From assembly GCA_963817015.1 (NCBI GenBank), contig CAWFMV010000006.1, positions 10,509-74,508 on the forward strand: DNA of 64,000 bases, read 5' to 3'. This DNA is from an uncultured Alphaproteobacteria bacterium (GTDB lineage: Bacteria > Pseudomonadota > Alphaproteobacteria > Rhizobiales > Xanthobacteraceae). The number at the start of each line of letters is the position of its first letter. The first letter of the stretch is position 1. The translations under genes were made by a program, and so were the position numbers. Below, in pieces: positions 5,259 through 64,000 of the stretch. The notes beneath the pieces are model-generated. The model searched no databases. It was given only the letters and a program-made list of their open reading frames with translations, and had not been told where the DNA came from.

Positions 5259-5278
5259 GACAGTGTCGGAAGTGTCGG
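5241..5278. repeat. 15-bp tandem repeat (caagacagtgtcgga x2 plus partial third copy)
   Basis: Direct reading: caagacagtgtcgga caagacagtgtcgga agtgtcgg. It overlaps the annotated 5' end of the MFS ORF. Confidence 0.8.
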
Positions 5279-5344
5279 CGCAGTAACGGAGTTGACCGGC
5301 TAACTCGGGTTGGCCGGGAAGGTTCCAAAAGGGCTGGACGTCCG

Positions 5345-6565: not shown

Positions 6566-6872
6566 CGCACAACCATCATTCAATGAAACAAGAAACGCGC
6601 TACGGCTTTGATTTATCTGTGCCCCGGCAAACAATGCCTGAATGCACGTGCGCTCCGAAGCGCATTAGCGGGCAATGGTTTCGGCACTCTTGCGCGCTTG
6701 CCTCGCATTCGAATGAGATGGCGGCCCACTTGGCGCCCACTTGGCGACAGAACGCTAGGTGGCGGCACCATTGGCGCGTACCCTGGCGCGTCGCGCAAAT
6801 GAGTGGTTCTATTTTACCGATAGGCTCCGCTGATTATGCCCGTCAGCGCGGCACACAACTAAGGAGGCTCAC

Positions 6873-7244
6873 ATGCGACCCAGAATTTTCGCGCTAGGGA
6901 TGTTTGTGCTCAGTCTTGCAGCTTGTGACGTGACCAGCACGGTGACAGAGGGCTTCAAGCAGGCGCGAGCGGTCGAGAGCGCGCTCGAGACCTCGACCGG
7001 CGTCAAGCCGAATGTCAGCTTCAACTGGCAGAATGGACAGCTGACCTCGGTCACCATCATCTTTCCCGCTATCCCCGAAACGAAACCATTGCGCGAGTTG
7101 GCCGATGAGGTGCGCGCCACAGTGGGCAAGGAATTCAAGGAAGGGGCAAACAACGTCGTTTTGGCTTTCTCGCTCGGCAAAGCCGTGCCAAGCACGAAGG
7201 CGGACACACCCGCGACGTCACGCCTGGCAGGCTTGACGCGTTGA
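6873..7244 (+). CDS. small lipoprotein, unknown function
   Basis: AAGGAGG SD; lipobox MRPRIFALGMFVLSLAAC; 123 aa. Confidence 0.7.
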   Translation: MRPRIFALGMFVLSLAACDVTSTVTEGFKQARAVESALETSTGVKPNVSFNWQNGQLTSVTIIFPAIPETKPLRELADEVRATVGKEFKEGANNVVLAFSLGKAVPSTKADTPATSRLAGLTR

Positions 7245-7298
7245 GCGCAGGCTTGGCGCGCTGAGCGGCGGGCCGAACGCAGGGAGGATGAAATACAA

Positions 7299-7668
7299 AT
7301 GCCGGAAGTGTTCGTCGAAAAAATAACGGACTTCGCCGAAGGCGACCGCCGCATCGTGTTTCACGACGGCAGCGAGATCGGGGTGTTCCACTGGCAGGGC
7401 GAGTTCTACGCCTATGAGAATCTCTGCCTGCACCAGGGCGGCCCCTGCTGCGAGGGCGTGATCATGCACAAGGTCGAGGACGTGCTCGGCCCCGACAAGA
7501 CCTGGCTCGGCCAGACGTTCTCCGCCGACGAGGCGCATTTCGTCTGCCCGTGGCACGGCTACGAATACGACATCAAGACCGGCGAATGCGCCGGCAATCG
7601 CAGCTTGCGCCTGAAATCCTATCAGGTCGTGCGCCGCGGCGCCGATCTCTACGTCGTCACTGGCTTGA
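7299..7668 (+). CDS. Rieske [2Fe-2S] domain protein (stop codon not in frame as assembled)
   Basis: CLHQGGP...CPWHGYEYD Rieske ligand motifs. The frame stays open to 8186, but a TGA at 7666-7668 in the +1 frame sits directly before the SD/ATG of the next gene, consistent with a single inserted base near 7660. Confidence 0.7.
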
Positions 7669-7681
7669 GGGAGACCGCGCC

Positions 7682-8904
7682 ATGGAGCTGCAGCCCAACG
7701 ACTTCCGCCGCATGTCGGTCGAGGAGTTCGACACCACCAAGCTGCTCGCGCACGCCGCCAGGCAGGCGAAGCGAGCGCGGCTACGACAAATTTCCGATCG
7801 TCGACGTCGACTCGCATCACTACGAGAACGAGTCGATGCCGGAAATCCTCGACTATCTCGACGATCCCGTGCTCAAGCAGCTCGCGCTCGCCGGCTCGAG
7901 GCCCAACGCCAAGAACGCGCGCATCATGAACACCATGGTGGGCTACCAGGACATGGGCGGGCGCATCCCGCGCTACGGGCTGCGCAATCTCGAGAAGACG
8001 CCGCCCGGCCAAGGACCAGCGCGACACCGCGCTCACCAAGCGCTGGATGGACGCGGTCGGCGTCGACGTCGCGGTGCTGTTCCCGACCCCGATGCTGGCG
8101 CTCGGCGTGCATCCGCAGGTCGAGGTCGAGATCGCGCTGTCGCGCGCCTACAATCGCTGGCTCTGCGAGCGCGTGCTGGCGCATGAGCCGCGGCTGGTCT
8201 CGATGCTCTATCTGCCGTTCAACGATCCCGACGCGACCTATGCGTTCGTGAAGGAGTTCGGCGAGAAGAAGGGCGTGGTCGGGTTTCTCATCACCTCGAC
8301 GCGCTACCGGCCGGTGCACGCCAACCAATACATGAAGACCTATGCGCTGCTCGAGGAGATGGGGCTGCCGATCGCCTTCCACGGCTCCTACCACTGGCAC
8401 GATCAGGCGCAGGGCATGCTCAACCGCTTCATCTCGGTGCATGCGCTCGGCTTCGTCTGGTACAACATGATCCATCTCGCCAACTGGATCATCAACGGCA
8501 TGCCCGGAGCGCTTTCCCAAGCTCAAGGTGATGTGGCTCGAAAGCGGGCTCGCCTGGATTCCCTTCATGATGCAGCGCTTCGACAACGAATACATGATGC
8601 GCACCTCGGAGGCCCCTGCCCTCAAGAAGCTGCCGTCCGACTACATGCGCGACATGTATTTCGCCTCGCAGCCGATGGAGATCACCGACATGGGGCTGCT
8701 GCAAGGAGACCATGCGGGTGATCAACGCGGAGACGCAGCTCGTCTATTCCTCCGACTATCCGCACTGGGACTTCGACCTGCCGTCGACGATCTACGACCT
8801 GCCGTTCCTGAGCGAGACCGCCAAGCGCAACATCCTCGGCGGCAACGCCAATCCGGCTGTTCAATCTCAAGCTCGGCGCCGAGAAGCTGGCGCAGGTCGC
8901 GTAG
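7682..8904 (+). pseudogene. amidohydrolase_2 (ACMSD-type) family hydrolase/decarboxylase, about 5 frame breaks
   Basis: Pieced from the MELQPNDFRRMSVEEFD start (GGGAGA SD), FPIVDVDSHHYE metal motif, VDVAVLFPT, LPIAFHGSYHW, FPKLKVMWLESGLAWIPF and VYSSDYPHWDFD, spread over ORFs 7550.., 7299.., 8047.., 8528.. and 8712... Ends at TAG 8902-8904. Confidence 0.8.
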
Positions 8905-12904: not shown

Positions 12905-13654
12905 TTGACAACAGCAATGGCAAATCCCAAAGCGAAAGTCGCACTCATCACCGGCGCCGCTCACGGCATCGGGCGCGCCATTGCACGGCACCTTCTCGAC
13001 AACGACTGGCGCGTCGGCGTGGTCGACCTGCCGGGCGCCGGCCTCAAGCGCGCCTATGCGGGTGACGCCCGCCGCGTCTGCCTGATCGAGGGCGATGTGG
13101 CGGAGGAAAAGACAGCGCACGACGCGGTCGCGGCCGTCACCGAAACATTCGGGCGGCTCGACGCCCTCGTTTCCAACGCAGGCATTGTCCACGAGAAGCC
13201 GCTGCGGCAACTGACCTACGACGAATGGCGACGCGTCATCGACGTCAACCTGTCGGCCGCCTACCTGTTTGCGCGCGCCGCCGACAAACCGCTGCGCGCC
13301 GCGCATGGCGCCATCGTGCTCATTGCATCGACGCGCGCCATCATGTCCGAGCCCGGCAACGAAGCCTATGCGGCCACCAAGGGCGGACTTGTCGCGCTCG
13401 CGCATGCGCTCGCCATGAGCCTCGGTCCCGATGTGCGGGTCAATTGCGTCAGTCCCGGCTGGATCATGACCGGCGACTATGCGAGCTTGCGCCGCAAGGA
13501 CCACGCCCAACACCCGGTTGGCCGCGTCGGAAAGCCGCAGGATATCGCTGAGATGGTCGCCTTCCTGCTCGACCGCGATCGTGCAGGATTTATCACAGGC
13601 GCCAACTTCATTGTAGACGGTGGTATGACCCGGAAAATGATATACGAAAGATAG
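12905..13654 (+). CDS. SDR-family oxidoreductase
   Basis: TGAAHGIGRAIA cofactor motif, NAG, YAATKGG catalytic Y-x3-K; 249 aa intact. Confidence 0.9.
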   Translation: MTTAMANPKAKVALITGAAHGIGRAIARHLLDNDWRVGVVDLPGAGLKRAYAGDARRVCLIEGDVAEEKTAHDAVAAVTETFGRLDALVSNAGIVHEKPLRQLTYDEWRRVIDVNLSAAYLFARAADKPLRAAHGAIVLIASTRAIMSEPGNEAYAATKGGLVALAHALAMSLGPDVRVNCVSPGWIMTGDYASLRRKDHAQHPVGRVGKPQDIAEMVAFLLDRDRAGFITGANFIVDGGMTRKMIYER

Positions 13655-13744
13655 CCAATTTTTGCCTGTCGAAAGGTTGCAACAAGAACTATATTGCCGG
13701 TCGCGGCATAAATATTTTCAGGCACTCCTAAAAAAGGGCCAGAT

Positions 13745-14782
13745 ATGATTTTCCGTCAGCTCTTCGATAGCGTATCCGGCACATATACTTACCTGCTCGC
13801 CAGCCGGCGCGGTGGCGAGGCCCTGATCATCGATCCGGTACTCGAGAAAACTCAACGTTATATACAGCTCATCAAAGAGCTCGACCTCAGGTTAGTAAAG
13901 GCGGTCGACACGCATCTGCATGCCGATCACATCACCGGGCTCGGCGCGCTGCGCGACCATACTCATTGCATCACTGTCATGGGCGAGATGAGCAAAGCGG
14001 ACGTCGTATCCATGCGGCTGTCCGACGGCGACAAGCTCACCATCGAAGGCATCGCGCTCGAAGCCATCTACACGCCCGGGCACACCGACGATTCCTACTC
14101 CTTCGCGATGAGCGACCGGGTGTTCACCGGCGACACGCTGCTGATCCGCGGCACCGGCCGCACCGATTTCCAGAACGGCGATGCTCGCGCGCAGTACGAC
14201 TCGATCTTCAACCGCCTGCTGAAGCTGCCGGAGGAGACGCTCGTCTACCCGGCACACGACTACAAGGGCGAAACCGTCTCCACCATCGGCGAGGAAAAGG
14301 ACTTCAACCCGCGCCTGCAGGTCAAGTCGATCGACGAATATGTCGAGCTGATGAACAATCTCAACCTGCCCAACCCGAAGATGATGGACGTGGCGGTGCC
14401 CGCCAACATGAAGGTCGGCTTTGCGCAGGAGACGATCGCACAGCGCGGCTGGGCGGTCACAGCCAAGGCCGCCATCGGCCTCGTCGGCCGTCCCGATATC
14501 GCGCTCGTCGACCTGCGCGAAAAGCTCGAGCGCGAAAGGGGCGGAGTCATCCCAGGCTCGCTGCATGCGCCCTATGCCGAGCTCGCCGCCCATGTGCGCC
14601 CTGGCGGCATGCTGCACGAGCTGGCGTCGGCAACAGGCAAGCGCCTGCTGTTCTATTGCGCCTTCGGGGAGCGATCCGCCATGGCGGTGCAGGCCGCGCA
14701 GGACGCCGGCATCGCCACGTCCTGCCATATCCACGGCGGCATCGATGCGTGGAGGAAGGCGCAGGGGCCGCTGGTGCGCTAA
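13745..14782 (+). CDS. MBL-fold persulfide dioxygenase (ETHE1-like) fused to a C-terminal rhodanese domain
   Basis: HLHADHITG metallo-beta-lactamase motif, TPGHTDDS, then a rhodanese active-site loop FYCAFGERS; 345 aa intact. Confidence 0.85.
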   Translation: MIFRQLFDSVSGTYTYLLASRRGGEALIIDPVLEKTQRYIQLIKELDLRLVKAVDTHLHADHITGLGALRDHTHCITVMGEMSKADVVSMRLSDGDKLTIEGIALEAIYTPGHTDDSYSFAMSDRVFTGDTLLIRGTGRTDFQNGDARAQYDSIFNRLLKLPEETLVYPAHDYKGETVSTIGEEKDFNPRLQVKSIDEYVELMNNLNLPNPKMMDVAVPANMKVGFAQETIAQRGWAVTAKAAIGLVGRPDIALVDLREKLERERGGVIPGSLHAPYAELAAHVRPGGMLHELASATGKRLLFYCAFGERSAMAVQAAQDAGIATSCHIHGGIDAWRKAQGPLVR

Positions 14783-35096: not shown

Positions 35097-35172
35097 GTCC
35101 ACGTAGCTCAGCCGGAAGAGCAGCGGATTTCTAATCCGCAGGTCGCAGGTTCGAGCCCTGCCGTGGACGCCA
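35097..35172 (+). tRNA. tRNA-Arg (anticodon TCT), CCA encoded
   Basis: Manual cloverleaf: acceptor GTCCACG/CGTGGAC, D arm GCTC-AGCCGGAA-GAGC, anticodon arm GCGGA-TT[TCT]AA-TCCGC, variable AGGTC, T arm GCAGG-TTCGAGC-CCTGC, discriminator G, CCA; 76 nt. Confidence 0.93.
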
Positions 35173-52819: not shown

Positions 52820-54656
52820 ATGGCACGCCAGAAGAAGAACGGAGCAAGCAAGAAGAAGAACGAAGCCTCCGGCAAGCGCATCCTGCGCTCGCGCTACTGG
52901 TTCGACCATCCGGACGATCCGGAGGCGACCGCGCTCTACTTCGAGCGCTACCTGAACTTCGGCTTCACCCGGACGGAGATCACGTCCGGGCGACCGATCA
53001 TCGGCATCGCGCAGTCAGGCTCCGACCTCTCCCCTTGCAACCGCCATCACCTGCAGCTTGCCGAGCGCGTGCGCGACGGCATCCGCGATGCCGGCGGCAT
53101 CGCGATCGAATTTCCGATGCATCCGATCCAGGAGACCGGCAAGCGGCCGACCGCCGCGCTCGACCGCAATCTTGCTTATCTGAGCTTGGTCGAAGTGCTG
53201 TACGGCTATCCGCTCGACGGCGTCGTGCTGACCACCGGCTGCGACAAGACCACGCCGGCCGCCATCATGGCGGCCGCGACCGTGAACATTCCGGCGATCG
53301 TGCTCTCGGGCGGCCCGATGTTGAACGGCTGGTGGAAGGGCAACCGCGCCGGCTCCGGCACCATCAAGTGGGCCTCCGGCAAGCTCTACAAGGCCGGCGA
53401 AGATCGACTACGACGAGTATCTCGACTCGGTCGCGGCCGCCGCGCCATCGATCGGCCATTGCAACACGATGGGCACCGCCTCGACCATGAACGCGCTCGC
53501 CGAGGCGCTCGGCCTGTCACTGCCGGGCTGCGCCTCGATCCCGGCGCCCTATCGCGAGCGCGGGCAGATCGCCTACGAGACCGGCCGGCGCGCGGTCGAG
53601 ATCGTCCACGAGGATATCAAGCCGTCCGACATTCTGACCCGCGAGGCGTTCGAGAACGCCATCGTGGTCTGCAGCGCCATCGGCGGCTCGACCAACGCGC
53701 CGGTCCATCTCAACGCGATCGCACGCCACGCCGGCGTCAAGCTCGCGATCGAGGACTGGGAGACGGTCGGCTATGACGTGCCGCTGATCGTCAACATGCA
53801 GCCGGCCGGCCAATATCTCGGCGAGGAATATCACCGCGCCGGCGGGCTGCCGGCGGTGCTCAGTGAGCTCATCAAGGCCAAGCGCATCCACGGCAATGCC
53901 AAGACCATCAGCGGCAAGAGCATTGCGGAGAACACAAGCGGCGCCACCATCAAGGATGAGGACGTGATCTATCCCTACACGAAGCCGCTCAAGGAGAAGG
54001 CCGGCTTCAAGGTGCTGCATGGCAACCTGTTCGATTCCGCCATCATGAAAATCAGCGTGATCGCGGACGAGTTCCGCCAGCGCTACCTCTCTGATCCCAA
54101 GGACCCCGATGCCTTCGAGGGACGCGCGGTGGTGTTCGACGGGCCGGAGGACTACCACAAGCGCATCGACGACCCTTCGCTCAAGATCGATGAGCGCACC
54201 ATGCTGTTCATCCGCGGCGTCGGACCGATCGGCTATCCGGGCTCCTCGGAAGTGGTCAACATGCAGCCGCCCGCTGCGCTGCTCAAGAAAGGCATTACCT
54301 CGCTGCCGTGCATCGGCGACGGACGGCAGTCGGGCACATCGGGCTCGCCTTCGATCCTGAACGCGACGCCGGAGGCGGCGGCGGGTGGCGGGCTTGCGCT
54401 GCTCCAGACCGGCGACCGCGTGCGCATCGATCTGCGCAATGGTACCGCCAACATTTTGATCTCTCCCGAGGAGCTGGCCGAGCGGCGTGCCGCGTTGCAG
54501 AAGCGCGGCGGCTATCCCTATCCCGAGAGCCAGACCCCCTGGCAGGAGATCCAGCGCGACATCGTCGACCAGCTCGCCGACGGTATGGTGCTCAAGCCGG
54601 CGGTCAAGTACCAGCGGGTTGCGCAAAAGGCCGGCGTGCCACGGAACAGCCATTGA
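52820..54656 (+). pseudogene. IlvD/Edd-family sugar-acid/dihydroxy-acid dehydratase, one frame break at ~53402
   Basis: [44 protein letters not shown] and [10 protein letters not shown] motifs. The break is resolved as gaa[g]atc. Confidence 0.88.
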
Positions 54657-54719
54657 CGCGAAACAGTTATTAATGCCACGCGTGTCGAAGCAGCACCTGA
54701 TACGAAGAGAATACCTAGC

Positions 54720-56093
54720 ATGGCGCAAGGGCTGAACGCGGCAGACCGCCCATCCGCATTTCCGATGGCGGCATCGGCCGGCACGATCACGCTCATTGCG
54801 ACGCTCGCCGCGCTGGGCTTTGCGCTCACGGTAGTCCTGTTTTTTCCGGGCTACCTGACCAACGATGCCACCTTCGTCTATCAGTACATGCGTGACTGGC
54901 GTTTCGGCGACTGGCAATCGCCGCTCATGAGCATGCTGTGGTGGGTGATCGACCCGATCTCGCCCGGCCCGGGCAGCATGTTTCTCCTGATCGCGTTTTC
55001 CTATTGGCTCGGGTTCGCCCTCGTCGGTATCGCGCTGGCGCGTCGATCCGCATTGCTGGGCGTGGTGGTGCCGCTCCTCGGGCTCGTTCCGCCTTCCTTT
55101 ATGATGCTCGCCATGCTCTGGCGCGACATTCTGTTCGCAGCAGCCTGGCTGCTCGCCGCTGCGATCGTGCTGCTGATGGCGGATCGCGGCCCTACGGCGC
55201 GCATCGTAGCGGCAGCCGTTGCGCTCGTGCTGACTGGCTTCGGGGTGCTGTTGCGGCCGACCGCTTTCGTTGCCGCGCCGCTCCTCATCGGCTATGCGCT
55301 CTGGCCGATGCGCTTCGAATGGCGGCGCATGACGATCCTGTTCTTGCCGGCGATCGCGGCCGGCTTCCTGCTGATTCATCTCGTCTACTACGTCATCCTC
55401 GACGTGAAGCGCGAGAACCCGCTGCACTCGGTCTTCGTCTTCGATCTCGGCGGCATCACGCATTTCAGCGGCGAGAACCAGTTTCCGGTGGAATGGAGCG
55501 CGGAGGAGACCGCGCTCCTGACCCTCCGCTGCTACAATCCCGATCGCTGGGACGTCTACTGGACGCTCGAGCCCTGCCGCTTCGTGATGGCACGCCTCGA
55601 GCGGCCCGACGACGTCATCTTCGGCACCCCGCGGCTGACCGAAGCCTGGAAGGAAGCCGTCACATCGGAGCCGCTTGCCTATCTGCGCCACCGCCTCACC
55701 TTCTTCTGGCGGTTCCTGGCCGACCCCGACACGCTCACGTTCGAGCTCTACAAGATCAATGATCCTGCAACGCCGCTCGCCGGCAACGACCGCTTCAAGG
55801 CGATGGTGGCGCTGCACGACACGCTCAAGGCGACAGTGCTGTTCCGGCCGGGCTTCTGGCTGATACTCTCCGGCATGATCGTCATCGTGGCGATGCCGGC
55901 GCGCACGCGCCGCGCGGGCGCCTTCGCCATCGCGGTGGCCGGCTCGGCCACGATCTACGTGCTGACGTTTCTGCCGTTCGGAGTCGCGGCCGACTTCCGC
56001 TATGGCTACTGGTGCGTGCCGGCCTGCCTCGTGAGTGCGGCCGCGCTGTTCGCCGCCTACCGAGAGCGAGAGCCTGAATCACCGTCCAGATGA
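54720..56093 (+). CDS. polytopic membrane protein, possible GT-C-fold glycosyltransferase
   Basis: 457 aa with at least 9 hydrophobic segments plus a ~150-aa soluble loop. The first loop carries acidic/aromatic residues (TNDATFVYQYMRDWRFGDW). The function call is an inference. Confidence 0.55.
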   Translation: MAQGLNAADRPSAFPMAASAGTITLIATLAALGFALTVVLFFPGYLTNDATFVYQYMRDWRFGDWQSPLMSMLWWVIDPISPGPGSMFLLIAFSYWLGFALVGIALARRSALLGVVVPLLGLVPPSFMMLAMLWRDILFAAAWLLAAAIVLLMADRGPTARIVAAAVALVLTGFGVLLRPTAFVAAPLLIGYALWPMRFEWRRMTILFLPAIAAGFLLIHLVYYVILDVKRENPLHSVFVFDLGGITHFSGENQFPVEWSAEETALLTLRCYNPDRWDVYWTLEPCRFVMARLERPDDVIFGTPRLTEAWKEAVTSEPLAYLRHRLTFFWRFLADPDTLTFELYKINDPATPLAGNDRFKAMVALHDTLKATVLFRPGFWLILSGMIVIVAMPARTRRAGAFAIAVAGSATIYVLTFLPFGVAADFRYGYWCVPACLVSAAALFAAYREREPESPSR

Positions 56094-56857
56094 CGGGCAT
56101 TCTCTCGCAGACGCACCAGCACCGCGCGCGTTTCCTCGACCACGCTCTTGATGATCGCGGCGCCAAGCTCGGCCGAGGCCGCGGCGGCATCGCCGATGAC
56201 GCCATCGCGCGCCAGGCGCGGATCGTCAGTGCGCCAGGGCCAGCTGGTGCCGCGATCGAAGATCAGCGCCCGAATGGCGTCAGGCTCGCGGTCGAACTCC
56301 GCCGCCAACTCGCGGCGCACGAGATCGGGCGCGAGCGCGAGCATCACCGAGGTCTCGTGCCGCCCGCCATGCACGTCGGGCACTGCGATGCTGCGGTCGA
56401 CCTTGGCAAGATCGAAGGGGTGGATAGCGCAGGCATTGAGTCCGAAGTCTCCCGCGAGCTCGAGCAGCAGGGTCTCGAGCACGCCGCGATTGCCGCCGTG
56501 GCCATTGAGGATCAGGAGATTGCGCGCCGGCAGCGCGCGCACGAGCGTGGCGGCAAGCTCGCGCAGGTGCGTGACAAAGCCTGTGATCGATAGCGACAGC
56601 GTGCCGGCGGCCCAGTCATGCTCGCGCGCAAGGCCGACCGGAACGACCGGCAGCTGCCAGAGGTCGAGCTCCTCGCCCCAGTGGGCCACGATCGCGCGCG
56701 TGAGCCCTTCGGCTACCACGACATCGGTGTTGAGCGGCAGATGCGGACCGTGCTGCTCGATCGACCCGAGCGGCAGGCACAGGATCGAGGTCTTGCTGAT
56801 CAGCCGCGCACTCTCGGCCGACGTTAATTCGACGACCCGTCGGTTTGGCGCAGCCAT
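56057..56857 (-). CDS. creatininase (creatinine amidohydrolase/MftE) family protein
   Basis: LPLGSIEQHGPHLPLNTD, LNGHGGN and HGGRHETS motifs; 266 aa. Its 3' end overlaps the convergent gene by 37 nt. Confidence 0.87.
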   Translation of the reverse strand: MAAPNRRVVELTSAESARLISKTSILCLPLGSIEQHGPHLPLNTDVVVAEGLTRAIVAHWGEELDLWQLPVVPVGLAREHDWAAGTLSLSITGFVTHLRELAATLVRALPARNLLILNGHGGNRGVLETLLLELAGDFGLNACAIHPFDLAKVDRSIAVPDVHGGRHETSVMLALAPDLVRRELAAEFDREPDAIRALIFDRGTSWPWRTDDPRLARDGVIGDAAAASAELGAAIIKSVVEETRAVLVRLRENARHLDGDSGSRSR

Positions 56858-56860
56858 GCG

Positions 56861-57412
56861 TCAGCCGCTGACCATGCGCATGAGGACGCGATCCTTGCGC
56901 ACAAAATGGTGGAACAGCGCCGCGCCGATATGCATGGCGGCAACCACCGCGATCGAGATTCCAACGACCTTGTGAATGGCCAGCAGTTGCTCGGAGAGCG
57001 CACGGTTCACCGGCCAGATCGATGGCAGGTTGAACAGGCCGTAGATGGGCACAGGCGCCGGATAGGCAGCCGTCGCGATCCAGCCGAGAAATACCTGCAC
57101 CACTACGAGGCCATAAAGCAGGTAATGCGTAGCGTGGGCGGCAAATTGCTGGATCGCCGGAATGTCGGCGGGCAGCGGCGGCGGCGGGTGTCCCCAGCGA
57201 TAGAAGATGCGGATGAGAATGACCGGGATCAGCACCGCGCCGTTTGACTTGTGCAGGTCGTAAAGCTGGTCCTGCCAGGCGCCAGTCCATTTGTTGGCGA
57301 TAAGGATGCCCAGCACGATCTGGGCCAGCACCAGGATCGCTGTGATCCAGTGCAGCACGCGCGCGGTTGCGGTGTAGCCCGCGCTCGTTTCCATCGCCCC
57401 TTGGTCGCCCAT
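56861..57412 (-). CDS. cytochrome b561 family protein
   Basis: Four TM segments with conserved His (VLHWITAIL..., LHKSNG, HATHYLLY, AIHKVVG...HIGAALFHHF). 3-nt gap to the creatininase gene. Confidence 0.87.
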   Translation of the reverse strand: MGDQGAMETSAGYTATARVLHWITAILVLAQIVLGILIANKWTGAWQDQLYDLHKSNGAVLIPVILIRIFYRWGHPPPPLPADIPAIQQFAAHATHYLLYGLVVVQVFLGWIATAAYPAPVPIYGLFNLPSIWPVNRALSEQLLAIHKVVGISIAVVAAMHIGAALFHHFVRKDRVLMRMVSG

Positions 57413-57530
57413 CGCGCTTGCCCCTCGCTAGTGCGGACTTCTGAACCGCCACACTATGCGGGCGCATGCTCCGCACGAACAAGCGCCACTCTTGGATAGT
57501 AGCGCATGTCGCGAGACCAATGGAACGGGA

Positions 57531-58745
57531 CTAAGGAGCGCGCTCGGTGGCGACGGGGGCCTCGGCGGCATCGGCCGCCTCGGCGAACGCCGCAAGAAGG
57601 TGATCGAGCTTGTGGCCGGCGCGCGTCGCCTTGGCGGTGAGATAGCGCCGGTTGTCGGCATTGACCGGCCCGTGCAGCGGGATACGGCCGCTCACCTCGA
57701 TGCCGGCCTGGGTGAGGCCGTCGAGCTTGGCCGGATTGTTGGTCAGAAGCTTCACACGCTTGACGCCCAGGATCTGCAGCATGCGGACCGCAACGCCATA
57801 ATCGCGCTCATCGTCATCGAATCCGAGCGCCGAATTGGCATCGATGGTGTCGAGGCCAGCGTCCTGCAGCTGGTAGGCGCGCATCTTGTTGGAAAGCCCG
57901 AGCCCGCGGCCTTCCTGCTCGAGATAGAGAATGACGCCCCCCCCTTGCTCCTCGAGACGGTGCAGGGCAAGCCGCAGCTGGTCGCCGCAATCGCACCGCC
58001 GCGACCCAAATACATCACCAGTGAGGCAGGCTGAGTGCAGCCGCAGCGGCACGGGCTCCCGCAGATCAGGCGAACCGACGATCACCGCAACAGAGCTGCC
58101 GCCAATGGCGTCGCGAAAGATGACGAAGCGCGCCGACACACCGCCGTTGATCGGCACGTCAGCCTCGGCCGAGACCGCGAGCGATTCAATTGCGGTCCGG
58201 CGGAATTGCGTGATGGCATCCGCCGCGACTGTCATGAGCGGGGGATCGCACGACTCCACCTTGGCGGCGTCAGCCACCAGCAGGGCAGGCATTCGCTGCG
58301 CCAGCTTGGCAAGCTCGATGGCGGCGCCGGCAACCGGGCCAGCCTGAACAACCTCAAGACCCCGCTCGACGCGCGCGTCAGAAGCCAACGCCACAATGGC
58401 CGCGGCATTGTCGCCTGACACCTCAAGCCCGATCGAATCGGTACTGGGGAGCCCAAGCGCCTGTGCGCGGCGCTCGGTGATGACAAGATGAGGCTCAACA
58501 GGGGCGCAAAGACGCCGAAAGGCGGCCAGCCGTGTGTCCGTCATGCCATCGACTGGCAGGGCCAGCGCCGCTACGCCGCCCCGTGCAATCACCACCGGCC
58601 GGCCAGACCGGAATTCCGCAATGCCGCGCTCAACCGCCACGTGCTCAGGCTTGCCGAGCAGGCCAGCGTCGCGGCCTATGTCTTGGCCGACGTCACGGCC
58701 TACGTTACGACTCACCGCATCCCCCTGCATCTTGCTAAAACCCAC
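57531..58745 (-). CDS. ribA: GTP cyclohydrolase II with ~200-aa N-terminal RibB-like (apparently degenerate) domain
   Basis: RLHSACLTGDVFGSRRCDCGDQL zinc-Cys motif, ILYLEQEGRGLGL, TNNPAKL. The N-terminal domain lacks the acidic DDEDRENEGD-type loop. GTG at 58745 or ATG at 58730. Confidence 0.85.
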   Translation of the reverse strand: MGFSKMQGDAVSRNVGRDVGQDIGRDAGLLGKPEHVAVERGIAEFRSGRPVVIARGGVAALALPVDGMTDTRLAAFRRLCAPVEPHLVITERRAQALGLPSTDSIGLEVSGDNAAAIVALASDARVERGLEVVQAGPVAGAAIELAKLAQRMPALLVADAAKVESCDPPLMTVAADAITQFRRTAIESLAVSAEADVPINGGVSARFVIFRDAIGGSSVAVIVGSPDLREPVPLRLHSACLTGDVFGSRRCDCGDQLRLALHRLEEQGGGVILYLEQEGRGLGLSNKMRAYQLQDAGLDTIDANSALGFDDDERDYGVAVRMLQILGVKRVKLLTNNPAKLDGLTQAGIEVSGRIPLHGPVNADNRRYLTAKATRAGHKLDHLLAAFAEAADAAEAPVATERAP

Positions 58746-58941
58746 GGCCCCTCGCTTTTGGCACCATTACAGAAACAATCTAATGGGCCGTTTTGTTCCC
58801 TCAATGGGCATTCCAGACCCATGGGACTCATCTCGAAGTCGGCAACCTGTTCTAGGTTCATGACGCGATGAAGGCGTTAAATGGCTATTGACGCGACCTT
58901 CCGCGCGGCGACAGTGGCCGGCAACCAGAGCACGTAGCATC

Positions 58942-59724
58942 ATGCCGACCGACTGCGGTGGAGCACCATGGCCCGATATTCCAAGGGCTTTTCGGGATAC
59001 CGATGGCGTGCTCCCAGCGCCCTGGCAGGAGATTTTTGGTCCGTTACGACAAGGCATTAGGGATGATCTGGTGGTTGTCGGGCAGTTCGGCCAGTCCATT
59101 GATGCCCGAATCGCCACTCCGACCGGCCACTCACACTATATTAATGGCACGGCCGGGCTAGCCCACCTGCACCGCCTGCGCGCGCTGGTTGATGCGGTGG
59201 TCGTGGGAATCGGCACCGCGGTGGCTGACGATCCCCAGCTGACTGTTCGCCATGTCGCCGGTCCAAGCCCCGCGCGGGTGGTGATCGACCCTAGCGGCCG
59301 CCTGCCAGCCACGGCTCGCCTGCTCGCCGAGGACGGCATCAGGCGCATTGTCGTGACCCGGGCGGAGACGGAAACGCGGCTGCCAGCCGGCGTGGAGCAC
59401 GTGGCCTTGCCCTCCCCGCGCGGGCAGCTTGCGCCGGACGCCATATTGGCGGCGCTCGCACAGCGCGGCTTCCGCCGCTTCCTGATCGAAGGCGGTGCCG
59501 ACACGGTATCGCGCTTCCTCGCGGCGGGCTGCCTGGATCGGCTGCATGTCGTGATCGCGCCAATCATTTTGGGAGCGGGCCGGACCAGCGTCTCGCTCGC
59601 CCCGATCGCGCGCGTCGAGGAGGCCATGCGCGCGCCCATGCAGATCCACAAGCTTGGTGAGGAGGTGCTGCTCGACTGCGATCTCAGTGCTCAGCGGGTC
59701 GCGGTGGCGAAGACATCGACATGA
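58942..59724 (+). CDS. RibD C-terminal-domain reductase (no deaminase domain)
   Basis: GQFGQSIDARIATPTGHSHYINGTAGLAHLHRLRALVDAVVVGIGTAVADDPQLTVR and FLIEGGADTVSRFL motifs. ATG at 58942; the ORF is open from 58888. Confidence 0.8.
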   Translation: MPTDCGGAPWPDIPRAFRDTDGVLPAPWQEIFGPLRQGIRDDLVVVGQFGQSIDARIATPTGHSHYINGTAGLAHLHRLRALVDAVVVGIGTAVADDPQLTVRHVAGPSPARVVIDPSGRLPATARLLAEDGIRRIVVTRAETETRLPAGVEHVALPSPRGQLAPDAILAALAQRGFRRFLIEGGADTVSRFLAAGCLDRLHVVIAPIILGAGRTSVSLAPIARVEEAMRAPMQIHKLGEEVLLDCDLSAQRVAVAKTST

Positions 59725-60491
59725 CCAACCCGCATGCTTGAACGCCCCGCGGCAACGAGCTCGCGCCGGCGTGCCAGCCACGAGTCGATGGCCGCTTGCG
59801 GCAGGTCGCCGAGCTCGCCGGCAGCGCCCGCCCATCCGGCGAGCACCTCCAGCTGGATCGCACGATCTTCCGGCGCAAACTCCCAGTCTGAAGCGCCGCT
59901 CATGACCGTGTAGCCCACGCGCTCGAAGGCGCGCACCGCGCGCAGCCCTGCCTCCGGGCCAAGCGCCGAGCCGAAGCCCTTGTCGCGACGCTGATGTCGG
60001 TTCACCGCCGCAACGATCTCAAGATCGAACGGCTCCGCCGGATCGAGTGTCGCCTGGCCCTGATAGGTGAGCGCTGCATAGACCGGGAGCCGACGCGCCG
60101 CCGCCTCGACGGTGAGCCGCCCCAGCCAATCGGCGGAGACGAGATCGAGCAACGCCGAGGTGCTGATCAGATCGAGGGCGCCATCGAGCGCCAGCTCGAG
60201 GTCGCGCACGAGATCGATGGTCCGCGCCTCAATCAGCAGGTCGGGCGGGCGCACCAGCGCAGACGCATGCGCCAGCAGGCCGAGATCATTGTCGACCAGC
60301 CGCCAGCGCTGGCGTGCCGGCAGGCGCGGTCCCACGGAGCGCACGGTCGAGCCGGTGCCGCAGCCGAGATCGACCACGGAAATTTCGGACTGGCCGGCGA
60401 ACACCGCCGCGACCCGATCGAGCACGGTGACGCTGCGCGCGCGCTGATCATAGGGCTCACGTAGCGCCAGCCATTGAGCCGAGAAGGTCAT
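59691..60491 (-). CDS. class I SAM-dependent methyltransferase
   Basis: VVDLGCGTGS motif I. 266 aa. Its ATG overlaps the upstream GT4 stop (ATGA). Confidence 0.8.
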   Translation of the reverse strand: MTFSAQWLALREPYDQRARSVTVLDRVAAVFAGQSEISVVDLGCGTGSTVRSVGPRLPARQRWRLVDNDLGLLAHASALVRPPDLLIEARTIDLVRDLELALDGALDLISTSALLDLVSADWLGRLTVEAAARRLPVYAALTYQGQATLDPAEPFDLEIVAAVNRHQRRDKGFGSALGPEAGLRAVRAFERVGYTVMSGASDWEFAPEDRAIQLEVLAGWAGAAGELGDLPQAAIDSWLARRRELVAAGRSSMRVGHVDVFATATR

Positions 60492-61543
60492 GCGAGACCA
60501 TCCAGCACTGAGGCAAACAGCGCGGCGGATTCCCGCCAGGTCGGAAACGAGGCCGAGGCTGCGCGCGCGCCAGCCGCAAGCCGCTCGCGCTCGGGCGCAT
60601 CATCGATCAGCTGCTTCAGCGTGTTGGCGAGCGCGTCGACGTCGTCAGGCGGGATGAGGATGCCGGCGCCAGGCGGCACCGTATCGGGGATCGCGCCGGC
60701 ATTGGTTCCGACCACAGGCACGCCGTGCGCCACTGCCTCGGTGTAGGCCATGCCATAACCCTCAAAGCGAGATGGCAGCACGAACAGATCCGCCTCCGCA
60801 TAGAGCTCGGCCAGATCCTCTTCCGGCACCGGGCCAACGATCTCGATGCGGTCGGACAGCCCGTAGCGCGCGATGTCCTCGTCCAAGCGGGCCGCGGTCT
60901 CGGAGCTGCGCGTGTTGTCGCCGACAATCACAAGCCGCCAAGGATGGTCTTTGAGCCGCGCCAACGCTTCGACCAGCACGTCATAGCCCTTGCGCGGCAC
61001 GATCGCGCCGACCGTCAGCAGCATCAGCGGCCTATCCGACGGACGAGACTCATGCGTTGCTGCGCGATCGGTGCCGGGCTTCACCACTGTCAAATGCTCG
61101 GCCGGCACGCCGTAGTCGGCGACCAGGAGGCGCGCCGTTGCATCGCTCGTTGCGATCACGTGGCGGGCGCAGGCCAGCGCAACACGCTCGCTCGTGTGAA
61201 GTGCCGCGGCTTCTGCGTCGGCGAGGCCGGTCTCGAGCGCGAGCGGATGATGCACGAGTGCGACCACGGTGTAGCGCTCTCGCAGAGACTTGGCCTCTTC
61301 CGCCATAACCCCATAAGCGAGCCCGTCGATCACGAGCGGCTGGCCGATCGGCAAACCCATGAGCTGTGCGCCGGCGATGGTTCGCACCTCCGGCGTCGGG
61401 CGAGGAAATCCATCGCCGATGTCGAGCACCTCGACCTGCCAGCCCAGCGCCTCGAGCTCACCGACAATGCGGCGGTCGTAGGTGTAGCCGCCGGTCGGCG
61501 TATTGAGATCACCGGGAACCGCAAACGCGACCGCCTTCACCAC
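60488..61543 (-). CDS. GT4-family (GT-B fold) glycosyltransferase
   Basis: LLTVGAIVPRKGYDVL, FVLPSRFEGYGMAYTEAVAHGVPVVGT (E-x7-E). The GTG start overlaps the PTPS-like stop. Confidence 0.87.
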   Translation of the reverse strand: MVKAVAFAVPGDLNTPTGGYTYDRRIVGELEALGWQVEVLDIGDGFPRPTPEVRTIAGAQLMGLPIGQPLVIDGLAYGVMAEEAKSLRERYTVVALVHHPLALETGLADAEAAALHTSERVALACARHVIATSDATARLLVADYGVPAEHLTVVKPGTDRAATHESRPSDRPLMLLTVGAIVPRKGYDVLVEALARLKDHPWRLVIVGDNTRSSETAARLDEDIARYGLSDRIEIVGPVPEEDLAELYAEADLFVLPSRFEGYGMAYTEAVAHGVPVVGTNAGAIPDTVPPGAGILIPPDDVDALANTLKQLIDDAPERERLAAGARAASASFPTWRESAALFASVLDGLA

Positions 61544-61938
61544 AACGGCGCCTCGTACCAGGCCTGCGCGGTCGGCGATTCCGCGATCGTGATGCGGATC
61601 GCCTTGAGCTCGCGCCCGTCGCGCCCGAGCTTGCCCGCGCGTGCTGCATCGGCGAGCTGATCGAAGACATACTTGGTGAGGAACTCGGTCGTTGTGTTGA
61701 CGCCTTTGAACTGCGGCAGCGCATCGAGATTCTTGTAGTTGAGCGGCTTGAGCGTCGCCTTGAGCACGTCGGTCGCAAGCCCGATATCGACCACGATGCC
61801 GTTCGGATCGAGCTGCTCCGAAATGAAGGCAGCGCGCACCACGAAGGTCGCGCCATGCAGCTCCTGCGCCGGTCCAAACACCGCGCCGCGGAACGAATGC
61901 GCAATCATGATCTGGTCGGACACTTCGACAGCGAACAA
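61537..61938 (-). CDS. 6-pyruvoyl-tetrahydropterin synthase / QueD (COG0720)-like protein with incomplete His triad
   Basis: 133 aa. IAHSF ... LHGATF ... NYKNLD ... TTEFL layout parallels PTPS/QueD (AAH...HGHNY...E), but HGH is replaced by HGA and no catalytic Cys is evident. Confidence 0.7.
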   Translation of the reverse strand: MFAVEVSDQIMIAHSFRGAVFGPAQELHGATFVVRAAFISEQLDPNGIVVDIGLATDVLKATLKPLNYKNLDALPQFKGVNTTTEFLTKYVFDQLADAARAGKLGRDGRELKAIRITIAESPTAQAWYEAPLW

Positions 61939-61951
61939 GGGGGCCTCCGAT

Positions 61952-62950
61952 TTATGAGCGGGCTGCAGGATAGCGGATCAGCGGGCAACGCACGTCGCCA
62001 TTGGACGACAATAGGTCGGCGAGCCGCGCCGGCAGCTCGCCGAATTCAATCGCCGGCGCAAGAAGCACATCGAGCGCCGGGTCGTCGAGTAGTGCAAGCG
62101 CAGCTGCAAGCCTGCGGCCATGCGTCCAGCGCGGGCGATGCGAGGGTGCAATCTTGCCGACCTGACTCGCGACGAGGCGCAGCCTGCGGCTATGAAAGGC
62201 TTCGCCGAGCGGCGCCGCGACCTCGCCGGCGCCGTACCAGCTCAGCTCCACAATCGTCGCCTCATCGCCTGCGAGCCCGAGCGCGGTGGCCAGGCCTTTG
62301 GCGGAGGCGCTGGCGTGAAACACGAGATCGCAGTCGCGCGGCGCCTCTTCCGGCGTGGCAAAGCTCGCACCGAGCGCGCGCGCAAGCGCAGCACGCTCAG
62401 GCGCGATGTCAACAAGCGTAACCTCAACGCCCGGCATGCGCGCGCACAGCCTGGCGATCAAGAGACCGACGATGCCGCCGCCAACGACCGCGATGCGATC
62501 GGCCGGACCGGGCGCGCCGTCCCAGAGCGCATTGAGTGCGGTTTCCATATTGGCGGCGAGCACCGCGCGGGCGGGCGGGACTGCAGCCGGCACTGCTACC
62601 ACCATGGTCGCCGGCATGGTGAATTCGTCCTGATGGGGGTGAAGCGCGAACACGATCTGACCAAGTCGATCTGCCAGCGTGATCTGACCAGACGTGGCGC
62701 CAGCCTCGACCCGGCCGACGGTCGCATAGCCATATTTGACCGGAAACGGAAAGGCGCCGGCCATCAAGGGGGCCCGCATACGCTCGTATTCGCTCGCCGG
62801 CACCCGCCCAAACGCCACCAGCCGCTCGGTGCCCCGGCTGATCGCGCCATAGAGCGCACGCACCCTCACCTCGCCGGAACCGGGCGCCGCAGCCGCCTCC
62901 TCTCGCAGCTCCGCCCGGCCGTCGCCGACATACCAGAGGGCTTTCGCCAT
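61952..62950 (-). CDS. MDR-superfamily (zinc-type/BchC-like) dehydrogenase
   Basis: ALYGAISRGTERLV, GYATVGRV and the Rossmann motif VVGGGIVGLL. Start at ATG 62950 or 62968. Confidence 0.8.
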   Translation of the reverse strand: MAKALWYVGDGRAELREEAAAAPGSGEVRVRALYGAISRGTERLVAFGRVPASEYERMRAPLMAGAFPFPVKYGYATVGRVEAGATSGQITLADRLGQIVFALHPHQDEFTMPATMVVAVPAAVPPARAVLAANMETALNALWDGAPGPADRIAVVGGGIVGLLIARLCARMPGVEVTLVDIAPERAALARALGASFATPEEAPRDCDLVFHASASAKGLATALGLAGDEATIVELSWYGAGEVAAPLGEAFHSRRLRLVASQVGKIAPSHRPRWTHGRRLAAALALLDDPALDVLLAPAIEFGELPARLADLLSSNGDVRCPLIRYPAARS

Positions 62951-63044
62951 TGACCGATCTTTCGCCATGTTCACAACGGATGGACGCGGGATGACCTGAG
63001 CCCACTCACGAGATATCCTAGCCTCACGAAAAGCACAGCCCTCC

Positions 63045-64000
63045 ATGTCCGAGCAATCCCTTCAGCAAGCCGTCCTTGCGGCAGCGCCAGTCGCGCTGAC
63101 GCTGCGCCGCATCCTGTTCCTGGCCCTGGTCGGGCTCACGATGGCGGCGATGATCGGGCTCCTCGTGGTAGCGCTGTCGGCCGGTGGCTTCGGCTTTGTC
63201 GATTTCGTCCTGGTCGTACTGTTCGCGATCACGCTGCCCTGGATGGTGATCGGCTTCTGGAACGCCACCATCGGATTTCTGATCATGCGGCTCGCGCGCG
63301 ACCCGGTGGCGACCGTTACGGCGACCGCAGCGGGCATCACCGGCAGGGAGCCGATCACAGCCTCGACCGCCGTCCTGATCTGCATCCGCAATGAGCCACC
63401 GGAGCGGCCGGCTGCCTTTCTGATGCCACTGTTGCAGGGACTGGCGGCGAGCGAGGCCGCCTCGCACTTTCACATCTACATCCTCAGCGACACTGACAAT
63501 CCCTCGATCGCGCAGGCCGAAGAGCGGCTGTTCGCTGCCATGGCGGAGACCTGGCGCGAGCGGCTGCGCATCACCTATCGGCGGCGCGCGGCCAATCTGG
63601 GATTCAAGGCCGGCAATATCCGCGACTTCTGCGACCGTTGGGGCAAGGACCACGAGCTCGCACTCGTGCTCGATGCCGACAGTGTCATGACGGCACCGGC
63701 GGTGCTGCGGCTGGTGCGCATCATGCAAGCCGAGCCGCAGCTCGGCATTCTGCAAAGCCTCGTCATCGGCATGCCGTCGGCGAGCGCATTCGCGCGGCTG
63801 TTCCAGTTCGGAATGCGGCTCGGCATGCGCTCCTATACGATCGGCAGCGCCTGGTGGCAGGCCGATTGCGGTCCTTATTGGGGTCACAATGCCATCATCC
63901 GGATTGCGCCATTCATGGCGCATTGTGAGCTGCCGAAGTTGCCCGAGAATGCGCTGGTCGGCGGCCACATCCTCAGCCACGACCAGGTCGAGGCGGTGCT
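63045..64000 (+). CDS. opgH: glucans biosynthesis glucosyltransferase H (OPG synthesis), 5' part, runs off window end
   Basis: Not in the ORF track because there is no stop before the window end. I translated from ATG 63045: MSEQSLQQAV...ICIRNEP...YILSDT...FKAGNIRDFC...LVLDADSVM...YWGHNAIIR...ILSHDQVEA. All are MdoH/OpgH hallmarks. Confidence 0.9.
   Translation, partial: MSEQSLQQAVLAAAPVALTLRRILFLALVGLTMAAMIGLLVVALSAGGFGFVDFVLVVLFAITLPWMVIGFWNATIGFLIMRLARDPVATVTATAAGITGREPITASTAVLICIRNEPPERPAAFLMPLLQGLAASEAASHFHIYILSDTDNPSIAQAEERLFAAMAETWRERLRITYRRRAANLGFKAGNIRDFCDRWGKDHELALVLDADSVMTAPAVLRLVRIMQAEPQLGILQSLVIGMPSASAFARLFQFGMRLGMRSYTIGSAWWQADCGPYWGHNAIIRIAPFMAHCELPKLPENALVGGHILSHDQVEAV

Follow-up and report, generated by a model that had tools for sequence, protein, structure and literature searches.

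A PTPS-IV gene cluster beside opgH in an uncultured alphaproteobacterium: a possible route from GTP to the cell envelope

An orphan cluster and its described relatives

Within COG0720, the subfamily named PTPS-IV (PMC5041015) has been collected as 561 sequences whose gene neighbourhood network includes GTP cyclohydrolase II (GCH II; PF00925) and the reductase domain RibD_C (PF01872); FGPAQ is its typical motif, and its function was left unassigned (PMC5445326). For one member, SCO6650 of Streptomyces coelicolor, a crystal structure and the GCH II/RibD_C neighbourhood have long been known with no reaction assigned. Here we describe a locus of this kind in a 64,000-nt stretch of contig CAWFMV010000006.1 from an uncultured member of the Xanthobacteraceae (hereafter, the window). 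A PTPS-like gene stands there in a four-gene operon with genes for a dehydrogenase of the MDR superfamily (ADH), a GT4 glycosyltransferase, and an S-adenosylmethionine (SAM)-dependent methyltransferase (MT). Genes for GCH II and a RibD_C protein lie on one side of the operon, and on the other is a gene of the OpgH family of glucan synthases, at the right edge and cut by the window end (Table 1).

Judged by its sequence, the PTPS-like protein belongs to PTPS-IV and is of the SCO6650 type, with all three defining features present. It aligns over its full length with SCO6650 (PDB 3d7j_A; residues 1-131, E 5.4e-41), the next-best PDB matches being QueD and PTPS at E ~1e-4; shortly before HG(H) it has the motif FGPAQ, the window reading 'VFGPAQELHGATF', and an alignment of 29 diverse homologues shows no variation at F21, G22, P23, or A24; and the window holds both PF00925 and PF01872, the published neighbours. 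These are also the features shared with the SCO6650–SCO6655 region of S. coelicolor, and from them it follows that the window locus is a new example of a known orphan cluster. An earlier sequence-only reading of this DNA had taken the combination of genes to be undescribed; that view has to be given up, since the neighbourhood of GCH II and RibD_C with SCO6650-type proteins is in print (PMC5445326).

Canonical PTPS and QueD are defined by the catalytic motifs CxxxHGH, CxxxxxHGH, and ExxHGH (PMC5041015). In the window protein the zinc site is incomplete: on alignment to rat PTPS (1b66), H14 and H28 are kept, and the third His position is Ala30 (in 'LHGA'). The 29 homologues all have H28 and conserve G29 and T31; A30 is invariant in an 11-sequence subset. 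Gly22 occupies the catalytic Cys position of PTPS, and N67-Y68 stands in PTPS-IV where rat PTPS and QueD have the Asp-His pair. These active-site residues exclude a canonical QueD/PTPS function, whether PTPS-I, -II, or -III or the one given by PGAP annotation. T83-T84-E85 aligns with the TTE of 1b66, and E85 and E120 are invariant (29 homologues); their counterparts in the rat structure presumably anchor the 2-amino-4-oxopyrimidine ring. This residue pattern makes PTPS-IV a probable binder of a ring of the guanine, pterin, or diaminopyrimidinone type, but one unable to carry out PTPS/QueD chemistry.

The subfamily is large and diverse. There are at least 8000 close homologues, with identity still at 80% at rank 120, and 623 clusters at 50% identity are obtained at E ≤ 1e-10; a scan of one genome per species, made with a conserved stretch of the 11-sequence subset, found carriers in at least 597 species. 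Some proteins (P0150, P0154, P0156, P0163, P0168, and P0205; 373-855 aa) contain three tandem PTPS-IV-type domains and up to ~450 extra residues with no Pfam match, and may form a covalent pseudo-trimer of the T-fold. As Rosetta-stone fusions the long PTPS-IV proteins were uninformative: they are ADH–PTPS or PTPS–GT4 read-throughs or triple-PTPS proteins, and reveal no new partner. PTPS-IV-like genes also occur on a Streptomyces anthocyanicus plasmid (L084) and in a metagenome (L088) in other contexts, with MEKHLA and cupin genes or with an asparagine-synthase-like gene and another methyltransferase, so the subfamily is not tied to one cluster type.

Among characterized pathways, the early riboflavin steps of archaea and fungi (ArfA/ArfB/ArfC; Rib7), in which reduction precedes deamination, share with the window a creatininase-family protein nearby and a stand-alone RibD_C that resembles reductases of 2,5-diamino-6-ribosylamino-4(3H)-pyrimidinone 5'-phosphate (DARPP). 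The cluster differs in having no deaminase and no lumazine or riboflavin synthase, in a reductase and a creatininase that score under the ArfC and ArfB cutoffs, and in the T-fold protein, GT4, MT, and dehydrogenase that come downstream. The toxoflavin cluster toxABCDE of Burkholderia glumae has in common a GCH II paralogue with RibD-type entry and a SAM methyltransferase, but ToxE is a complete RibD, deaminase domain included, whereas the RibD_C protein of the window is reductase-only and is accompanied by a T-fold protein, a GT4, and a dehydrogenase; the ORF list and profile matches contain no ToxC- or ToxD-like ORF at 54.7-64 kb. With the tetrahydrobiopterin and cyanobacterial pteridine-glycoside pathways, the window shares the PTPS fold, a reductase, a GT-B glycosyltransferase, and the pterin-anchoring Glu. 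Those pathways run through GTP cyclohydrolase I (GCH I), PTPS, sepiapterin reductase, and a pteridine glycosyltransferase, whereas the cluster is without GCH I, has RibD_C rather than an SDR as its reductase, and has a PTPS-IV that is without the third zinc His, the catalytic Cys, and the Asp-His pair. The sequence-only reading had remarked on the lack of a deaminase, GCH I, and ToxC/D and had concluded that the locus is neither a toxoflavin nor a cyanobacterial pteridine-glycoside pathway, as is borne out here.

The other side of the locus calls to mind the synthesis of osmoregulated periplasmic glucans (OPG; opgGH, opgC; ChvA/NdvA). The neighbouring proteins are of the MdoH family, with 31-40% identity to E. 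coli OpgH, and related loci add an exporter and OpgC. OpgG is missing from the window and the fetched loci, however, and the cluster OpgH, at ~610 aa, is without the ~190 N-terminal residues of the E. coli protein; we know of no OPG system described as coupled to a small-molecule operon. Vicine and convicine of faba bean are GCH II-derived pyrimidine glucosides, formed with a GT1-type UGT and loss of the ribose. The likeness, from GCH II to an aminopyrimidine to a glycoside, is one of analogy only, and to this the window adds an envelope module, a T-fold protein, and a reductase that would form the ribityl chain. In its logic the locus comes closest to a hybrid in which archaeal/fungal early riboflavin steps are joined to a small-molecule tailoring operon and an envelope glycoconjugate module. 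It is excluded as a canonical PTPS/QueD locus, a tox cluster, a bifunctional RibD operon, or a canonical opgGH locus, since it fails a defining feature of each.

Conservation of the core operon and its membrane partners

Conservation was followed in the best 80 loci from the species scan, one per species, with 10-kb flanks. They come from alpha-, beta-, and gammaproteobacteria and actinobacteria, and include Xanthobacteraceae, Bradyrhizobium, Roseiarcus, Reyranella, Roseibium, Rhizobium, Agrobacterium, Neorhizobium, Methylobacterium, Hyphomicrobium, Paracoccus, Roseovarius, Polynucleobacter, Methylopumilus, Alcaligenaceae, Hydrogenophaga, Xanthomonas, Amycolatopsis, and Umezawaea. For scoring, the window proteins served as tblastn queries and the ORFs of the loci were clustered all against all; denominators differ from gene to gene, as only loci with enough flank were counted.

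The core that emerges is the ADH–PTPS-IV–GT4–MT operon, with ADH found in 67/68 scored loci, GT4 in 68/74, and MT in 65/72. RibD_C is a frequent partner, adjacent in 49 of 68 loci (72%). Accessory to these are GCH II, adjacent in 29/56 loci; cytochrome b561, present in 20 of 59 at varying positions within the cluster; and a creatininase-family gene (13/58), which in Amycolatopsis stands beside GCH II of the Met type (see below). Homologues of a 457-aa membrane protein of the window ('memb457') occur in 10 of the 53 loci scored, beside FkbM/OpgH genes or beside the creatininase gene, and an FkbM-type methyltransferase gene in 23/60. A sizeable minority of loci, such as that of Roseibium, have no GCH II or RibD_C within 10 kb of the core. 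The layout persists over considerable distance: L087, whose PTPS-IV has only 42% identity, has the same gene order and also a cytochrome b561. In plasmid pOB3b1 of the model methanotroph Methylosinus trichosporium OB3b (L083, 241751-247866), mdoH stands next to ADH–PTPS-IV–GT4–hypothetical(MT)–RibD. PGAP gives the PTPS-IV gene there the label '6-carboxytetrahydropterin synthase' and a queuosine GO term, an annotation at odds with its residue pattern.

These patterns uphold the proposal that the genes are one functional unit, with synteny reaching far past close relatives into Xanthobacteraceae, Rhizobiaceae, Rhodobacterales, Burkholderiales, Xanthomonas, and Amycolatopsis. They also redraw its boundaries. 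The unit is larger than the six genes first proposed, extending to OpgH, cytochrome b561, the creatininase-family protein, and memb457, and GCH II, one of the six, is accessory.

The membrane partner of the core is of one of two kinds. In 43 of 60 loci, the window included, ORF clustering places a gene for an OpgH-family protein of ~610 aa beside the ADH operon, in divergent orientation in nearly every case. The partial protein of the window has 40.5% identity to residues 194-453 of E. coli OpgH, and a full-length orthologue (L039) scores 553 bits against NF003958 (cutoff 419) and exceeds the trusted cutoffs of two MdoH equivalogs. Adjacency is kept in both alpha- and betaproteobacteria; in Roseovarius (L056) opgH has moved to the opposite side of the cluster and is adjacent still. 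In seven betaproteobacterial loci (L007, L008, L012, L014, L028, L029, and L033; ~4300-8900) the core MT gene is no longer part of the ADH–PTPS–GT4 operon and lies on the opposite strand, directly downstream of opgH and the gene for a ChvA/NdvA-type glucan ABC exporter (NF010178, 837 bits; cutoff 733), in one gene run. The exporter is found in 13/57 loci. L087 has, immediately next to opgH but on the other strand, a gene for an OpgC-type acyltransferase.

Where OpgH is missing (Rhizobium, Neorhizobium, Agrobacterium, Hydrogenophaga, Xanthomonas, and Amycolatopsis), a CDP-alcohol phosphatidyltransferase (PF01066) is usually found, often with an MprF-type flippase domain (PF03706), as in Amycolatopsis and, by tblastn, in four Rhizobiaceae-type loci and Umezawaea. 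One or the other is present in 49 of 54 loci, and never both together. The Amycolatopsis loci (L073 and L077) offer a close comparison: they have ADH–PTPS-IV–GT4–MT with GCH II and creatininase, as does the window, and the actinobacterial clusters differ in pairing a CDP-alcohol phosphatidyltransferase and MprF-type flippase domain with Met-type GCH II, where the window has OpgH and a Tyr-type enzyme.

That the neighbour of ADH is an OpgH homologue (PF00535, PF13632) had been recognized earlier and offered as a hint of an envelope role; the hint is strengthened by its retention across classes and by the betaproteobacterial MT inside an opgH–glucan-exporter operon. With E. coli OpgG as query, tblastn gave no match at E ≤ 1e-4, either in the window or among the fetched loci, and the arrangement is therefore no canonical opgGH operon. 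On the simplest reading, a small alcohol or glycoside is produced in the cytoplasm by the soluble enzymes and then takes one of two courses: glucosylation and export by OpgH, or phosphatidylation and flipping. Such coupling of the core to OpgH or a CDP-alcohol transferase appears to be undescribed in the searchable literature, outside which most subscription papers lie.

From GTP to the envelope: a proposed pathway and its rivals

The GCH II of the window passes the RibA subfamily model NF001591 (229 bits; cutoff 148) as well as PF00925 (cutoff 23.3), and keeps the zinc Cys triad ('HSACLTGD…RRCDCG', corresponding to C54, C65, and C67 in what we take to be the E. coli RibA reference sequence). 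The switch position, equivalent to Tyr105 of E. coli RibA, is Tyr ('MRAYQLQD'). A Tyr here should lead to deformylated DARPP rather than the formylated FAPy, at which SCO6655, a GCH II with Met at the switch, reportedly stops (work ascribed to Spoonamore and colleagues in Biochemistry in 2006). Proteobacterial cluster copies likewise keep the zinc Cys residues and read RAY or RTY at the switch, with the exception of one divergent partial match (L069). Met is found in Amycolatopsis (L073 and L077, ~13290-14620) and His in Umezawaea (L068). Archaea deformylate FAPy with the creatininase-family ArfB, and the Met-type GCH II with an adjoining creatininase in Amycolatopsis echoes this ArfA/ArfB logic.

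The first ~190 residues of the window GCH II have no Pfam match and are kept in the proteobacterial cluster copies; the actinobacterial copies are short and without this domain, and in Amycolatopsis they abut the creatininase-family gene. Including this region, the window protein scores 361 bits against a PRK08815-type RibA model, under the cutoff of 464, and the domain may be a degenerate remnant of DHBP synthase. It is not recognizable as such, BLASTP against what we took as the E. coli RibB sequence giving no significant match.

The RibD_C protein has PF01872 as its sole domain (residues 63-242 of the 278-aa ORF) and matches RibD models on their C-terminal halves only; Pfam finds no CMP/dCMP-type deaminase domain in it, so it is not a bifunctional RibD. 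Its nearest solved structures are the archaeal DARPP reductases 6p8c (E 4e-22) and 2azn (E 1e-21), with bacterial RibD (1e-17) after them and, further behind, the DHFR-like Rv2671 (4xrb, E 1.6e-7). Since the cluster has no deaminase, one would expect the ribityl 2,5-diaminopyrimidinone as intermediate, which retains the very ring recognized by a T-fold Glu pair.

Among the tailoring enzymes, ADH matches TIGR01202 (bchC) at E 1.8e-12, far under its cutoff, and has the Rossmann motif GGGIVG; 'ISRGTE' stands at what we take to be the position of the classical zinc-ADH Cys ligand, and the enzyme may, on sequence, oxidize a secondary alcohol. Among solved structures, GT4 comes nearest to a sucrose-phosphate-synthase-like protein, MshA, and PimB (E 1e-24 to 4e-20), which act on polyol phosphates or lipids. 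The AlphaFold model of MT (pLDDT 94.4) has a class I fold, and its best Foldseek matches are small-molecule methyltransferases at TM ≤ 0.65; no solved methyltransferase is matched by sequence at E < 0.1. None of the core enzymes has a transmembrane segment, which would place their action in the cytoplasm, ahead of export.

We tentatively propose, at somewhat less than even confidence, that these genes make up a three-module pathway leading from GTP to the envelope through entry enzymes, the tailoring operon, and an envelope module. GCH II would open GTP to DARPP, which the archaeal-like, deaminase-less RibD_C would reduce to its ribityl form with the 2-amino-4-oxo ring retained. The BchC-like dehydrogenase would then oxidize a secondary alcohol of the side chain. 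PTPS-IV would grip the 2-amino-4-oxopyrimidine by its Glu pair and rearrange or cyclize the side chain without canonical zinc/Cys chemistry, after which GT4 would attach a sugar and the class I MT a methyl group. OpgH would take the glycoside as primer or substituent and move it to the periplasmic side, probably helped by memb457 and cytochrome b561; in other lineages the CDP-alcohol phosphatidyltransferase and MprF-type flippase would produce a lipid-anchored version. Gene content, family assignments, the active-site residue pattern, synteny, and the either/or membrane pairing are observed; we infer the chemistry at every stage, the sequence in which the enzymes act, and delivery to the envelope, and the same is true of the choice between pyrimidine and pterin, the identity of the sugar, and the position of the methyl group. 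A specific form of product, which we think possible but would not expect, is a glycosylated and methylated heterocycle (the ribityl-diaminopyrimidine or a derived pteridine) held covalently in the envelope, as primer, cap, or substituent of a periplasmic glucan or as a new phospholipid head group flipped by the MprF-like protein; it might be redox active and served by cytochrome b561.

Several observations weigh against this pathway. Because GCH II and RibD_C are missing near the core in a minority of loci, the link to GTP is statistical, not obligate. PTPS-IV is without the residues that do PTPS/QueD chemistry, and homology is therefore no guide to its reaction. The substrate of RibD_C is uncertain, since the protein falls below every NCBIfam equivalog cutoff (TIGR00227, 132/150; TIGR01508, the ArfC/Rib7 type, 105.5 versus 186 bits) and its family includes dihydrofolate- and dihydromethanopterin-reductase-like enzymes. 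The creatininase has no evident role, as the Tyr of the local GCH II should give the deformylated product directly. The fold of MT does not yield a substrate class, the Foldseek result being non-specific, and the GT-C-type matches of memb457 are non-significant on a model of pLDDT 73. No product of a PTPS-IV cluster was identified in the searchable full-text literature, which leaves out most subscription papers, and the remark that 'PTPS-IV is involved in F420 synthesis (unpublished)' (PMC5041015) points to a different product fate.

The nature of the ring is where a pterin route, which strikes us as rather doubtful, would part from the proposed pathway. DARPP or its oxidized ribityl form would undergo Amadori-type closure to a dihydroneopterin-phosphate-like pterin, aided by the dehydrogenase and/or PTPS-IV; RibD_C would be a DHFR-like dihydropterin reductase, and GT4 and MT would complete a methylated pterin glycoside, a periplasmic redox or signalling cofactor re-reduced via cytochrome b561. 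Retention of the pterin-anchoring TTE/Glu in the T-fold, the presence of Rv2671 among the RibD_C matches, and the recurrence of cytochrome b561 all agree with such a route, and pterin glycosides and O-methylated monapterin do occur in bacteria. Yet RibD_C is far nearer to the DARPP reductases than to Rv2671, GCH I is missing, PTPS-IV is without the Zn/Cys/Asp-His apparatus, and a side chain first reduced and then re-oxidized would be roundabout. A reading in archaeal order, in which the cluster supplies 5-amino-6-ribitylaminouracil-type intermediates for riboflavin or the deazaflavin F420/FO and PTPS-IV does a missing step such as deamination, could appeal to the F420 remark, to the archaeal-like reductase, to the membership of creatininase in the family of the archaeal FAPy deformylase ArfB (a weak match), and to the Met-type GCH II beside a creatininase in Amycolatopsis. 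It is very unlikely: no CofG/H/FbiC, CofD, CofE, lumazine synthase, or riboflavin synthase recurs in the 80 loci, the GT4, MT, and OpgH or CDP-alcohol transferase modules are left unexplained, and Rfam finds no FMN riboswitch in the window at gathering threshold, nor any at E ≤ 1 in 56000-63300. An FMN-riboswitch-controlled riboflavin operon is set aside on the same ground.

Other readings dispense with a heterocycle in the operon's product altogether. The operon might build a glucan primer, a glucan substituent, or a phospholipid head group from sugars and polyols alone (a polyol or cyclitol glycoside), with GCH II and RibD_C nearby for a flavin-type cofactor or for regulation. The genera in which the core has neither gene adjacent, the likeness of GT4 to MshA, PimB, and SPS-like enzymes, and the membrane partners themselves (OpgH, with OpgC in one distant locus and the ChvA-type exporter in a subset, or the CDP-alcohol transferase) would suit this, as would weak matches of ADH and creatininase to IolM and IolN of the inositol pathway, but these last are far under cutoff. 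RibD_C is adjacent in most loci, and GCH II and RibD_C are the dominant published neighbours of PTPS-IV; GCH II and a deaminase-less reductase cannot by themselves yield riboflavin, and a T-fold that keeps its purine/pterin-anchoring Glu has no obvious role on plain sugars. We therefore consider a sugar-only product unlikely. That a riboflavin paralogue pair merely happens to lie beside a polysaccharide operon is effectively refuted by synteny: GCH II and RibD_C do occupy transcription units separate from the four-gene operon, but the arrangement recurs in four bacterial classes, rearrangements keep the genes together, and RibD_C and MT share 34 nt of coding sequence.

The cluster is common among bacteria of soil and fresh water, and the alternation of OpgH with a CDP-alcohol transferase provides a first concrete, testable idea of where its product goes, directing attention to periplasmic glucan and lipid fractions and not to soluble cofactor pools. 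If the proposed pathway is right, it would constitute a new branch of GTP/early-riboflavin-intermediate metabolism and a new kind of envelope decoration. The covalently held form of product raised above would be a previously unknown class of heterocycle-bearing envelope glycoconjugate and would give PTPS-IV its first function.

Layout of the locus and accessory genes

Coordinates are collected in Table 1. The six ORFs, their domains, and their junctions lie where the sequence-only reading had placed them, as ORF analysis and profile matches confirm.

Table 1. Features of the PTPS-IV locus, in window coordinates
Feature	Position	Strand	Basis or remark
457-aa polytopic membrane protein 'memb457'	54720-56093	+	no Pfam/NCBIfam match
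Creatininase-family amidohydrolase	56057-56857	-	PF02633, 176.8 bits
Cytochrome b561-family membrane haem protein	56861-57412	-	PF01292, 97.3 bits
Terminator-like hairpin just 3' of GCH II	57483-57505	-	consensus match; sole such site in 54500-63300
GCH II paralogue with extra N-terminal ~190 aa	57531-58745	-	PF00925, 186.7 bits, residues 194-356
Divergent spacer GCH II/RibD_C, 196 bp	58746-58941		between GCH II start 58745 and RibD_C ATG 58942
RibD_C reductase-only protein	58942-59724	+	PF01872, 140 bits; ATG 58942, ORF opens at TTG 58888
SAM-dependent class I methyltransferase (MT)	59691-60491	-	PF13649, 24.7 bits, under gathering cutoff 27; AlphaFold model
GT4 glycosyltransferase (GT-B, retaining-type family)	60488-61543	-	PF00534, 135 bits
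PTPS-like protein (PTPS-IV T-fold)	61537-61938	-	PF01242, 75.8 bits
BchC-like MDR-superfamily dehydrogenase (ADH), first gene of core operon	61952-62950	-	TIGR01202 weak, PF00107 weak
OpgH/MdoH-family GT2 glucan synthase	63045-64000 (window end)	+	PF00535 and PF13632; ATG 63045

Within the core operon, 13 nt separate the ADH stop from the PTPS start. The PTPS stop codon, TGA at 61539-61537, is overlapped by two in-frame GTG codons, at 61543 and 61540, the latter forming a 4-nt GTGA overlap, and GT4 and MT meet in an ATGA overlap (60491/60488). The overlapping start and stop codons of this four-gene run indicate translational coupling. The convergent overlap of RibD_C and MT covers 59691-59724. 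The longest ADH ORF reaches 63046, but a start at 62950 or 62968 is preferred because the ATG at 63046 would overlap the opgH ATG; the divergent opgH start is 77-94 bp from the likely ADH start. The single terminator-like hairpin directly after GCH II suggests that cytochrome b561 and creatininase are transcribed apart from it. GC content is uniform, the locus being like its flanks.

Of the accessory proteins, memb457 has at least 8 hydrophobic segments and 1773 homologues at E ≤ 1e-5, with invariant acidic residues D49 and D64 in the first loop region; its gene is found on either side of the cluster. The weak fold matches of its AlphaFold model are of the GT-C type (STT3, probability 0.98, E 0.14; ALG3). 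It is a probable accessory member of the envelope module. The creatininase was rejected as an ArfB (NF033501, 21.8 bits; cutoff 180); it is nearer to the MftE and creatininase models, whose cutoffs it also misses.

The sole Rfam match in the window is a tRNA gene at 35097-35169 (+; 70.8 bits). In the 196-bp spacer there is no Rfam match at gathering threshold or E ≤ 1 and no match to the sigma-70 consensus. Upstream of GCH II in several relatives (among the equivalent spacers of L006, L009, L011, L018-L020, L023, L024, and L027) there is a short motif of patchy conservation, TTGCGACC … GGTGTTCTAYA, which has diverged in the window spacer (…attgtttctgta) and may serve as promoter or operator.

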